DNA of 64,000 nt from Escherichia coli (lineage in GTDB: Bacteria; Pseudomonadota; Gammaproteobacteria; Enterobacterales; Enterobacteriaceae). Positions 2,934 to 5,923 of the stretch are shown here, piece by piece (positions within the stretch are counted from its first letter, which is position 1; each line of letters starts with the position of its first letter). The translations under genes were made by a program, and so were the position numbers. The DNA is taken from the NCBI RefSeq assembly GCF_036507355.1, contig NZ_AP027877.1; one strand, given 5' to 3'. The notes below the pieces were generated by a model. The model made no database searches. It was not told where the DNA came from and saw nothing but the letters and a program-made list of their open reading frames with translations.

Positions 2934-3137
2934 ATGTTTGGTAACTTAGGACAGGCAAAAAAATATCTCGGCCAGGCGGCAAAGATGTTGATTGGCATTC
3001 CAGACTACGACAACTACGTCGAGCATATGAAGACCAACCATCCCGACAAGCCGTACATGAGCTATGAAGAATTCTTCCGCGAACGCCAGAACGCGCGCTA
3101 CGGCAGCGATGGTAAAGGCGGTATGCGCTGTTGTTAA
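2934..3137 (+). CDS. yjiX: Small DUF466-family protein, partner of BtsT
   Basis: 67-aa [36 protein letters not shown]...; matches my memory of YjiX. Confidence 0.85.
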
Positions 3138-3147
3138 TGGAGAGAGC

Positions 3148-4104
3148 ATGAACCCGATTGCAGTTACCCTACTCACCGGTTTTTTAGGCGCGGGAAAAAC
3201 CACCCTGCTGCGCCATATTCTTAACGAACAACACGGCTACAAGATTGCCGTGATTGAAAACGAATTCGGCGAAGTCTCCGTTGATGATCAACTAATTGGC
3301 GACCGCGCCACGCAGATCAAAACGCTGACCAACGGCTGCATCTGCTGTTCGCGCTCCAACGAGCTGGAAGACGCACTACTCGACCTGCTGGATAATCTCG
3401 ACAAGGGCAATATTCAGTTTGACCGTCTGGTCATTGAATGCACCGGCATGGCCGATCCCGGCCCGATTATTCAGACCTTTTTCTCCCATGAGATTTTATG
3501 CCAGCGTTACCTGCTGGACGGTGTGATTGCGCTGGTGGATGCGGTACATGCCGACGAGCAGATGAACCAGTTCACCATCGCCCAGTCCCAGGTTGGCTAC
3601 GCCGACCGTATTCTGCTGACCAAAACCGACGTCGCAGGCGAAGCAGAAAAACTGCGTGAACGCCTGGCGCGCATCAACGCCCGTGCACCGGTCTACACCG
3701 TCACCCACGGCGACATCGACCTGGGCCTGCTGTTCAACACCAACGGTTTTATGCTGGAAGAGAACGTCGTCAGCACCAAACCGCGTTTCCACTTTATCGC
3801 GGATAAACAAAACGATATTTCGTCGATTGTGGTGGAACTGGATTACCCGGTAGATATCAGCGAAGTTTCCCGGGTGATGGAAAACCTGCTTCTGGAATCG
3901 GCAGATAAACTGCTGCGTTACAAAGGGATGCTGTGGATTGACGGCGAACCTAACCGCCTGCTGTTCCAGGGCGTCCAGCGCCTCTACAGCGCCGACTGGG
4001 ACCGCCCGTGGGGCGATGAAAAACCGCATAGCACAATGGTGTTTATCGGGATTCAGTTGCCGGAGGAAGAGATTCGGGCAGCGTTTGCGGGGTTGAGGAA
4101 GTAA
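3148..4104 (+). CDS. yjiA: CobW/HypB-family GTPase (zinc-binding)
   Basis: From MNPIAVTLLTGFLGAGKTT: P-loop GxxGxGK and a CICC motif. The track ORF starts 28 codons upstream; I prefer the internal start. Confidence 0.85.
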   Translation: MNPIAVTLLTGFLGAGKTTLLRHILNEQHGYKIAVIENEFGEVSVDDQLIGDRATQIKTLTNGCICCSRSNELEDALLDLLDNLDKGNIQFDRLVIECTGMADPGPIIQTFFSHEILCQRYLLDGVIALVDAVHADEQMNQFTIAQSQVGYADRILLTKTDVAGEAEKLRERLARINARAPVYTVTHGDIDLGLLFNTNGFMLEENVVSTKPRFHFIADKQNDISSIVVELDYPVDISEVSRVMENLLLESADKLLRYKGMLWIDGEPNRLLFQGVQRLYSADWDRPWGDEKPHSTMVFIGIQLPEEEIRAAFAGLRK

Positions 4105-4115
4105 TTTTGGATGAT

Positions 4116-4147
4116 GGCCGCCATGTGGCGGCCTGAATTATTTTTTG
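4116..4147. terminator. Hairpin plus T-tract between convergent yjiA and the antitoxin gene; possibly bidirectional
   Basis: GGCCGCCATGTGGCGGCC stem-loop followed by TTATTTTTTG. Confidence 0.5.
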
Positions 4148-4440
4148 TTCTGATCGCGCAGCATCGCTTCACGTAAAATTGCGTTCAGGCGAGTTTGATA
4201 GCCTTTACCTGGTCGCTTCAACCATTCCATCACATCAGCATCAATACGCACCGAAGCCTGAGTTTTCAATGGCCGATAAAACTTACCGCGTTCGGCGTTA
4301 GACCATTGCTCATCGCTGGAAGGTGGGATATCACTGTAATCAATATCTTCGTCGGATTTATTCGCCAGCGCCTTCAGTTCGGCCTCATGCTGCACATCGA
4401 GTGTAGAGGAGGTCCCTCGTTTATGTTTAACCATGCTCAT
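4138..4440 (-). CDS. BrnA-like antitoxin
   Basis: C-terminal ...GKGYQTRLNAILREAM resembles BrnA-family antitoxins. Start taken at the internal Met (MSMVKHK); the track ORF extends further upstream and overlaps the toxin gene. Confidence 0.55.
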   Translation of the reverse strand: MSMVKHKRGTSSTLDVQHEAELKALANKSDEDIDYSDIPPSSDEQWSNAERGKFYRPLKTQASVRIDADVMEWLKRPGKGYQTRLNAILREAMLRDQNKK

Positions 4441-4714
4441 AGCGATTCCTCTCTTTACGATCTGCTTTTCGTGCACTGATGATTCGAATAATTTCATTTC
4501 CGCTTTCGAAACGGATGGTATGCGCAACCAGAATAACCACGATGCCGTAAACCAGGCCGATTGTCTGCCAGCGATACTCACCGTTTTCTATGCGTTCTTG
4601 CTGTGACAAATGTTGTGGATCATCAAACAATAACACCGCATCTTCAAAGCGGATGCCATGTTTCACCCGATTACTTTTGGCCTTGTTTTCATCCCATTCA
4701 AACTCCATTGGCAT
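4427..4714 (-). CDS. BrnT-like toxin (DUF497)
   Basis: MEFEWDENKAKSNRVKHGIRFEDAVLLFDDP...IRIISARKA matches the BrnT pattern as I recall it. Toxin gene lies upstream of and overlaps the antitoxin gene. Confidence 0.65.
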   Translation of the reverse strand: MPMEFEWDENKAKSNRVKHGIRFEDAVLLFDDPQHLSQQERIENGEYRWQTIGLVYGIVVILVAHTIRFESGNEIIRIISARKADRKERNRYEHG

Positions 4715-4912
4715 AATTGCCATCCCTAATTGTATATACAAAAATGTATCTACAATTATTCTGCAATTATAGCGTTGATGTTGGAAATAGCATCACGTTT
4801 CGAATAATCAACCATGAAATTGACAATGAGTAAGTTGGACTTGATTCATCCAATAGAATTTCTCGCCTGACATGGCACACTAAACACCTCGCTGTCGGGT
4901 AATGACTCCAAC

Positions 4913-5415
4913 TTACTGATAGTGTTTTATGTTCAGATAATGCCCGATGGCCTTGTCATGCAGCTCCACCGATTTTGAGAACGACAGTGACTTCCGTCCC
5001 AGCCTTGCCAGATGTTGTCTCAGATTCAGATTATGTCGCTCAATGCGCTGAGTGTAACGCTTGCTGATAACGTGCAGCTTTCCCTTCAGGCGTGATTCAT
5101 ACAGCGGCCAGCCATCCGTCATCTATACTACGACCTCAAAGGCCGACAGCAGGCTCAGAAGACGCTCCAGTGTGGCCAGAGTGCGTTCACCGAAGACGTG
5201 GCCACAACCGTCCTCCGTATCCTGTCATACGCGTAAAACAGCCAGCGCTGACGTGATTTAGCACCGACGTAGCCCCAATGTTCGTCCATTTCAGCGCAGA
5301 CAATCACATCACTGCCCGGTTGTATGCGCGAGGTTACCGACTGCGGCCTGAGTTTTTTAAGTGACGTAAAACCGTGTTGAGGCCAACGCCCATAATGCGT
5401 GCACTGGCGCGACAT
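4913..5415 (-). pseudogene. insB: IS1 insB broken into two ORF fragments (4913-5122 and 5155-5415)
   Basis: Copy 2 has a continuous 167-aa InsB ORF; here the same protein is split across two frames. Confidence 0.6.
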
Positions 5416-5609
5416 CCGACGCCATTCATGGCCATATCAATGATTTTCTGGTGCGTACCGGGCTGAGAGGCGGTGTAAGTGAACTGCAGTTGCCATGTTT
5501 TACGGCAATGAGAGCAGAGATAGCGCTGATGTCCGGCAGTGCTTTTGCCGTTACGCACCACGCCTTCAGTAGCGGAGCAGGAAGGACATCTGATGGAAAT
5601 GGAAGCCAC
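5334..5609 (-). CDS. insA: IS1 InsA
   Basis: 91-aa [46 protein letters not shown]... Confidence 0.85.
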
Positions 5610-5923
5610 GCAAGCACCTTAAAATCACCATCATACACTAAATCAGTAAGTTGGCAGCATTACCAAATTTTAATTACACTTAAGGTGTATATTTTCTATG
5701 CAAGCCATCAATTAAAGAGGTGTAATGTGCTGATGACTATTTGTAATCGTTATACATTCTGACCTGGAGTCAGAAGGTATTTCTCTGTCTGTGTATTCGC
5801 AGGCAGTGTGGTTGATTACATGAAATTCAGTACATTTGTCCTTCTCGCCTGCCTTTCGTCATTACCGACGGTATTGAATTTCGTTTTCCCCATTGGGGTT
5901 CTCCGGACAAGGAGTTGTTTGTT

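Follow-up and report, generated by a model that had tools for sequence, protein, structure and literature searches.

Do the two small overlapping genes at positions 4138-4714 of the window (the whole stretch of 64,000 nucleotides of Escherichia coli DNA that we analysed) form a toxin-antitoxin module of the BrnT/BrnA type, and is the position of the toxin gene in front of the antitoxin gene an unusual feature? Both ORFs are co-oriented on the minus strand, with brnT upstream of brnA. The toxin ORF carries FEWDENKAKSNRVKHG and IRIISAR, and the antitoxin ORF carries GYQTRLNAILR. From the data presented below, we conclude with high confidence that the locus represents a type II toxin-antitoxin operon of the BrnT/BrnA family which is chromosomal and intact, and which is transcribed on the minus strand from a promoter within the 183-bp spacer that precedes brnT. 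The pair is an already known and annotated type of module in a known location.

Identity of the genes, start codons and gene order

The original prediction, which was made from the letters of the DNA, had described a DUF497 toxin-like ORF that precedes and overlaps a BrnA-like antitoxin ORF, and had named a homology search against toxin-antitoxin databases as one way to check it. Here, we found that both proteins matched the expected Pfam families over the full length of the profiles. BrnT matched BrnT_toxin (PF04365, profile positions 1-77 of 77) with E=5.5e-24 and 84.7 bits (curated gathering cut-off 34.5 bits), and BrnA matched BrnA_antitoxin (PF14384, positions 1-68 of 68) with E=4.1e-17 and 62.8 bits (curated gathering cut-off 26.1 bits). 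The RefSeq annotation of an identical E. coli chromosome agrees, and lists WP_001297643.1 ("BrnT family toxin") at the equivalent of window positions 4427-4714 and WP_000063156.1 ("BrnA antitoxin family protein") at 4138-4440. Since these coordinates coincide with ours, 4138-4714 are the exact outer limits of brnT plus brnA. When the two proteins were scanned against NCBIfam, no family match was obtained; thus, the RefSeq names stem from another rule and family membership is unaffected. The predicted layout, with the toxin gene first and an overlap, was recovered as follows:

4427-4714, minus strand: brnT, 95 amino acids, BrnT-family (DUF497, RelE-like) ribonuclease toxin; start ATG 4714-4712, stop TAA 4429-4427
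4138-4440, minus strand: brnA, 100 amino acids, BrnA-family antitoxin
4427-4440, minus strand: brnT/brnA overlap of 14 nt, ATGAGCATGGTTAA, read from the sequence

The start codons of both genes had been called ambiguous. This ambiguity is real, but it can be resolved for either gene, in favour of ATG 4714 for brnT and ATG 4440 for brnA. The mechanical ORF list opens earlier (TTG 4741 for the toxin, GTG 4581 for the antitoxin) and the brnT start region contains three nearby in-frame ATGs (MAIMPMEF). An AGGGA Shine-Dalgarno sequence is located 8 nt upstream of ATG 4714 (MPMEFEW), and the first residue of chain A in the crystal structure 7VD7 is P2 when counted from this codon. ATG 4440 of brnA (MSMVKHK) is preceded at 7 nt by GAGG, the core of the Shine-Dalgarno sequence GAGAGGA (4453-4447), which is situated within brnT. 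All ten homologous loci retain the first methionine of brnA; the second one is missing from the Moraxella protein (MSKIV). Three other starts were considered and rejected. ATG 4723 lies within or overlaps the Shine-Dalgarno region of brnT and is missing in the Salmonella orthologue (upstream sequence ...TTAGGGAAAACACATGCCG). TTG 4741 is placed inside the operator palindrome described below, GTG 4581 is placed deep within brnT, and neither of these two starts is conserved.

From the resolved starts, an overlap of 14 nt (4427-4440) follows, ATGAGCATGGTTAA, with which the toxin closes as ..Y E H G stop and the antitoxin opens as M S M V K. The junction TATGAGCATGGT is common to E. coli, Salmonella and the plasmids of Klebsiella and Xenorhabdus. 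Its conservation from E. coli to the Xenorhabdus plasmids suggests that translation of brnA may be coupled to that of brnT.

The toxin-first order had been presented as a peculiarity, the reverse of the usual layout. It is reversed when compared with most type II toxin-antitoxin families, yet it is normal for brnTA, and this part of the prediction does not hold. In a 2025 survey of the RelE/ParE superfamily, the order T/A is listed for PF04365 (Table 1 of PMC11980606), and in all ten loci that we compared brnT precedes brnA, with overlaps of 14, 20 or 29 nt. These loci included two E. coli alleles and the Salmonella chromosome as well as plasmids of Klebsiella aerogenes, Xenorhabdus doucetiae, Salmonella diarizonae, Xylella fastidiosa, Moraxella osloensis, Iodobacter fluviatilis and Acinetobacter variabilis.

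Protein properties, regulatory sequences and proposed mechanism

Over 94 residues, BrnT and chain A of the PDB entry 7VD7 share about 85% identity (E=4e-52), and BrnT is distantly related to Brucella BrnT (3U97_A; phmmer E=1.6e-4). Each of the two 7VD7 chains differs at one residue from a Salmonella Infantis pair which is located between mrr and yjiA and is labelled as equivalent to STM4528/STM4529. Because of this single difference per chain, we infer that 7VD7 is the complex of the Salmonella orthologue STM4528/STM4529. When the exact 7VD7 toxin sequence (with a methionine added) was searched in the contig collection, no match was found. A full-text literature search did not return a paper on 7VD7 or STM4528, and a search for DUF497 in combination with Salmonella and crystal structure gave nothing relevant. 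The Salmonella pair shares with the window pair its position between yjiA and the mrr/hsd genes, the order toxin then antitoxin, the ATGAGCATGGTTAA junction, and the upstream palindrome TTGTATATACAA with TATAAT; its toxin is about 85% and its antitoxin 84% identical.

Judged by homology only, BrnT should adopt a RelE-like alpha/beta fold, in which a four-stranded antiparallel sheet is packed against short helices. For Brucella BrnT, Asp6, Glu7, Lys9, Arg41 and Glu78 have been described as important for RNase activity (Heaton 2012 via PMC5086665). These residues align to D8, E9, K11, R48 and E88 of the window toxin, and all five are identical. At the counterpart of Brucella E7, the window toxin has Glu, and the second E. 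coli allele and the Salmonella toxin have Ala. Since this residue varies among the closest relatives, it may be non-essential in this subfamily. Compared with Brucella BrnT, the enterobacterial toxin also has insertions around residues 31-47 and 66-72.

Residues 14-57 of BrnA align to chain B of 7VD7, which is the antitoxin fragment co-crystallised with the toxin (E=1.4e-16), and by this homology the N-terminal part of BrnA (about residues 14-57) is the probable toxin-binding segment. The C-terminal part (about residues 58-100) is a conserved putative ribbon-helix-helix (RHH) DNA-binding domain. We made this assignment because such a domain has been described for the family, in which brnTA is a two-gene operon and the C-terminal RHH domain of BrnA controls its transcription (PMC11980606). 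The C-terminal motif GKGYQTR.N.ILR.AML is invariant across 10 homologues, and the sequence pattern fits an RHH arrangement (strand-like SVRIDADV, helix 68-74, GKGYQT turn, helix 81-99). An AF2 monomer model of BrnA, which was built from a 10-sequence alignment, contained the helices 68-74 and 81-99 (pLDDT 72-81 there) and no strand; its overall pLDDT was 65 and its pTM 0.26. A Foldseek comparison of this model with the PDB gave 0 matches. With this moderate confidence and no Foldseek match, the model does not provide independent support for the RHH fold.

Comparison with Salmonella yielded pN/pS ratios of 0.11 for brnT, 0.13 for brnA and 0.115 for the neighbouring gene yjiA, and from the values of about 0.11-0.13 we conclude that both genes of the pair are kept by purifying selection. 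These ratios are based on uncorrected pN and pS, because saturation blocked the calculation of a Jukes-Cantor dS between E. coli and Salmonella (pS 0.64-0.75, which means that synonymous sites are nearly saturated). Within BrnA, pN was 0.01 for the C-terminal 43 codons and 0.14 for the N-terminal toxin-binding part.

The non-coding DNA on both sides of the pair contains the following elements:

4766-4771, minus strand: perfect TATAAT, read by hand, as the probable -10 element of the promoter of brnTA; the -35 element is weak
4727-4758, not stranded: candidate BrnA operator, situated after the -10 element and before the Shine-Dalgarno sequence of brnT
4749-4770, not stranded: tandem 11-nt direct repeat TCTACAATTAT / TCTGCAATTAT (repeat search), which shares positions with both the distal operator arm and the -10 element
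4116-4133, not stranded: G+C-rich hairpin GGCCGCCATGTGGCGGCC between the convergent genes yjiA (stop 4104) and brnA (stop 4138)

A sigma-70 consensus scan called no minus-strand promoter upstream of brnT, because no -35 hexamer reaches 4/6. TATAAT is present at the same place in the orthologous locus of Salmonella. The candidate operator consists of two 14-nt arms, TAATTGTATATACA (4727-4740) and TGTATCTACAATTA (4745-4758), which were found by the repeat search to be 93% complementary with a 4-nt gap. A perfect 12-bp palindrome, TTGTATATACAA, is located within this inverted repeat at 4730-4741, downstream of TATAAT. Since the C-terminal motif of BrnA is invariant, the inverted repeat is the obvious operator candidate, and the palindrome is likely to be the site at which BrnA binds. 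At a distance of 16-27 nt from the brnT start, the upstream DNA of Salmonella (twice) and of the Klebsiella, Xenorhabdus and Acinetobacter plasmids contains the motif TGTATATACA, and degenerate forms of it were seen in Xylella, Moraxella, Iodobacter and one Salmonella plasmid; the upstream regions around the motif are otherwise unalignable between loci. Salmonella has a second, perfect TGTATATACA as its distal operator arm, whereas the E. coli window reads TGTAGATACA on the gene strand. The Brucella operator is not known to share the TGTATATACA motif. The tandem direct repeat may supply extra AATTG(T/C)AGA half-sites. In strain WP5-S18-ESBL-07 one copy of this repeat is deleted, and brnT is deleted too.

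A terminator scan of the plus strand reported the hairpin at 4116-4133 with seven G-C pairs, a 4-nt loop and a T-run, and this hairpin is the terminator of yjiA. The brnTA transcript probably ends there as well, although the minus strand has no T-run after the hairpin.

That BrnT is an active RNase, and that BrnA is a labile protein which neutralises BrnT in a complex, binds the operator and autoregulates the operon, is carried over here from Brucella BrnTA (PMC5086665, PMC10714953, PMC11980606) and from the Salmonella complex 7VD7; our literature search found no experiment on the E. coli brnTA allele. By this analogy, BrnT would act as a small RelE-fold ribonuclease, which degrades RNA, blocks translation and thereby arrests growth. 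BrnA would be made from the same mRNA, and the overlap of its start codon with the last 14 nt of brnT suggests that the synthesis of the two proteins is coupled. BrnA would wrap around BrnT with its N-terminal segment (about residues 14-57) and inactivate it. The C-terminal RHH domain would form a dimer and repress the operon by binding the inverted repeat with the TTGTATATACAA palindrome, which lies after the -10 element and before the ribosome-binding site. Depletion of BrnA, for instance when it is degraded by proteases under stress or when the locus is lost, would then set BrnT free.

Chromosomal context and distribution

The pair is flanked in the window by the following genes:

3064-4104, plus strand: yjiA, with CobW/G3E GTPase domains (Pfam), convergent with brnTA
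4898-5664, minus strand: IS1 element of 767 bp with disrupted insB, 183 bp upstream of brnT (Pfam IS1 domains)

RefSeq lists insB of this IS1 as a pseudogene with the note "internal stop". In K-12, mrr lies directly beside yjiA and brnTA is absent. In other E. coli strains, yjiA, brnA and brnT are followed by a gene for an Mrr-like endonuclease, type I restriction-modification (R-M) genes and symE, and the neighbours of brnTA also include GmrSD and Fic genes. The arrangement in Salmonella matches that of these strains, and brnTA adjoins mrr/hsdR there. The segment between yjiA and yjiN is known as the Immigration Control Region (ICR), a defence island, and a 2025 review has already named brnAT among its toxin-antitoxin systems (PMC12707154).

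In the window the ICR is missing, and IS1 joins the upstream spacer of brnT to the upstream region of mdtM. The spacer meets IS1 at a point which, in other strains, lies 13 bp short of the start codon of the gene for the Mrr-like endonuclease. When the window was aligned to an ICR-containing strain and to K-12, the IS1 junctions were seen to lack a target-site duplication, which points to an IS1-associated deletion. This indicates that such a deletion removed the ICR and that brnTA, placed at the yjiA edge of the island, is the sole survivor of the defence island here. Of 5426 complete E. coli genomes, 1112 share this IS1 junction. In this genome set, the two genes are distributed as follows:

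brnA full length: 2110 of 5426 complete E. coli genomes (39%)
brnT full length: 1780 of 5426 complete E. coli genomes
brnT fragments only, with brnA intact: 331 of 5426 complete E. coli genomes

The intact pair thus occurs in 33%, or about a third, of the complete E. coli genomes, the toxin alone has been lost in 16% of the carriers (331/2111), and about 61% of the genomes, including K-12, do not have the pair at all. In the 331 fragment cases, either an internal part of brnT is deleted or its 5' part is replaced by a different ICR cassette. From the loss of brnT with retention of brnA in these genomes, we conclude that the toxin is dispensable and possibly costly. In E. coli, the brnTA locus is single-copy and chromosomal. 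Related pairs are common on plasmids (785 records, mostly Acinetobacter) and rare in phages.

These data bear on the question of why the pair is still there. It might be a selfish addiction module, which persists only because its loss is penalised, brings no benefit to the host and survived the ICR deletion since its removal would have been lethal. The IS1-associated deletion ended 183 bp upstream of brnT and left promoter and operator intact, this exact junction recurs in 1112 genomes, plasmid-borne relatives are common, and the decay order (brnT lost, brnA kept in 331 genomes) is the one expected for an addiction module. However, the IS1 junction represents a single inherited event, and its spared endpoint may be due to chance. 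Moreover, the absence of the pair from about 61% of complete genomes means that loss is tolerated, and both genes are under purifying selection of the same strength as yjiA. We therefore regard selfish persistence as a possible but rather unlikely explanation of the locus.

The locus could also be an inactive remnant, the ORFs of which are intact by chance and the toxin of which is non-toxic, or unexpressed beside IS1. The frequency of toxin-deleted derivatives in E. coli, the weak -35 element and the upstream context altered by the IS1 insertion would be compatible with this. On the other hand, neither ORF is truncated, the five RNase residues are all retained, and pN/pS is about 0.1. The 183-bp spacer (4715-4897) has few substitutions when compared with strains that retain the neighbouring restriction genes, and its -10 element and operator as well as both Shine-Dalgarno sequences are identical to those of ICR-containing strains. 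Over positions 4100-4900, at least 15 genomes are 100% identical to the window and 1091 match at 99% or more. Thus, loss of function is very improbable, and we retain the reading of an intact operon.

The surroundings of brnTA in other strains raise a third issue, which is a role in defence. Phage infection would deplete BrnA, and BrnT would then shut down the infected cell, so that the module would serve mainly in abortive infection against phages or in the control of incoming DNA, rather than in stress response or addiction. The position of brnTA inside the ICR, a documented defence island extending from yjiA to yjiN (PMC12707154), its company of Mrr-like, type I R-M, GmrSD, Fic and symE genes elsewhere, its place next to mrr/hsdR in Salmonella, and the discussion of RelE/ParE-superfamily toxins as defence toxins (PMC11980606) fit this idea. 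In contrast, a PADLOC scan matched neither BrnT nor BrnA to a defence-system model, the literature that we examined contained no phage-defence experiment on BrnTA, and the abundant plasmid homologues (785 records) fit plasmid addiction at least equally well. A defence function is therefore unlikely in our view. It is no real competitor of the intact-operon interpretation either, because it concerns the biological role and not the molecular mechanism.

Related systems and implications

The Brucella abortus BrnT/BrnA system (Heaton et al. 2012, J Biol Chem 287:12098; 3U97) belongs to the same Pfam families for both proteins, has the same toxin-first order (PMC11980606), and has the five RNase-important residues that are conserved in the window toxin. 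Its antitoxin autoregulates the operon via the C-terminal RHH domain (PMC11980606; PMC5086665). Closer relatives reside on small plasmids of Enterobacterales and Moraxellaceae (K. aerogenes p35_E, Xenorhabdus doucetiae XD_p, Acinetobacter), with toxins that are 59-72% and antitoxins that are 47-64% identical to those of the window. These plasmid pairs share the order toxin then antitoxin, an overlap of 14-20 nt, the MSMV start and mostly the TTGTATATACAA operator. They differ in that they are presumably addiction modules and have a much shorter leader between operator and start codon, whereas the window pair is chromosomal and inherited vertically within a defence island. HigB/HigA and MqsR/MqsA resemble brnTA in their reversed gene order and in having an RNase toxin of the RelE/BECR fold (Table 1 of PMC11980606). 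Unlike brnTA, they belong to other Pfam families, and HigA and MqsA use a helix-turn-helix (HTH) domain where BrnA has its putative RHH domain. The Pfam scan of the window pair gave no match to the HigB/HigA or MqsR/MqsA families.

As a discovery the locus carries little weight, because the pair has been named by an annotation pipeline, a Salmonella crystal structure is available and the 2025 review lists brnAT in the ICR. What the present analysis adds are firm start codons, the 14-nt overlap, the conserved operator candidate TTGTATATACAA and the population figures for E. coli.

Finally, the frequent brnT-less derivatives allow a more speculative proposal, which we consider quite improbable at present. 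Chromosomal brnTA might anchor or stabilise the yjiA edge of the ICR, and brnA without brnT might have been selected as an orphan antitoxin against plasmid brnTA addiction modules. In this case BrnA, with its near-invariant DNA-binding domain and the shared TTGTATATACAA operator, would immunise cells against the related brnTA modules of Enterobacterales plasmids or silence them. A corollary would be that brnT itself serves as a recombination breakpoint when ICR cassettes are exchanged, as seen in strain LSC52.

IS1 at the site of the deleted Immigration Control Region

The whole Immigration Control Region (ICR; mrr...rpnD in K-12), a defence island bounded by yjiA and yjiN, is deleted in the window and an IS1 copy marks its loss:

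Window 4898-5664: IS1 copy (767 bp) with insB split into two ORFs
Window 5415-5155 and 5122-4913: the two separate ORFs that make up the insB halves

An internal stop in insB was flagged by RefSeq. The 9-mers bordering the element, TCGCTGTCG (window 4889-4897) and AAATTTTAA (window 5665-5673), are unlike each other and thus, a target-site duplication is absent around this IS1. Among the 5426 complete E. coli genomes the identical IS1 junction was found in 1112. In the interval between IS1 and mdtM, window 5667-5762 is annotated by RefSeq in an identical strain as a small piece of a gene from the dienelactone hydrolase family; it aligns with the K-12 sequence upstream of mdtM, where the micro-ORF ytiE is annotated.

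Genomes that retain brnA but not brnT

Loss of the toxin gene brnT with a full-length antitoxin gene brnA was observed in 331 E. coli genomes, and these are orphan-antitoxin genotypes. When examples were compared with window 4138-4714, two forms of loss were seen. In one of them a deletion internal to the gene leaves a 5' stub of 102 nt (E. coli WP5-S18-ESBL-07, locus L003, 6001-6419, carries an internally deleted brnT). In the other, a different ICR cassette (Fic + GmrSD) takes the place of the 5' part of brnT, and the cassette breakpoint therefore lies inside the gene. E. coli LSC52 (L004, 6001-6352) shows this second form. The promoter region of the pair carries a tandem repeat:

Window 4749-4770: 11-nt tandem direct repeat, TCTACAATTAT/TCTGCAATTAT, overlapping the distal arm of the candidate operator and the probable -10 element

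Exactly one copy of this repeat is also gone from L003.

Replicon assignment and divergence of brnTA

Only three E. coli records of several hundred kb filed as plasmids carry the window brnTA at 95-100% identity (AP026530.1 and NZ_CP128951.1, 655 kb each; CP054241.1, 834 kb), and these appear to be replicons that derive from the chromosome or were wrongly assigned, not genuine plasmids. The plasmid matches also include the 22-kb record NZ_LT985269.1 (100% identity). AFYI01000007.1, a 501-kb chromosomal contig of Salmonella Infantis, had been placed in a phage collection; its brnTA match is chromosomal and not phage-borne.

Alignment of window 4138-4714 with positions 5001-5577 of this Salmonella locus (L006) gave uncorrected synonymous divergences (pS) of 0.75 for brnT and 0.64 for brnA, whereas a much lower value (0.45) was obtained for the adjacent yjiA (window 3148-4101 vs. 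L006 5655-6608). Weak codon bias could explain the high pS of brnT and brnA; alternatively, their alleles in the variable island may be older or have been exchanged.
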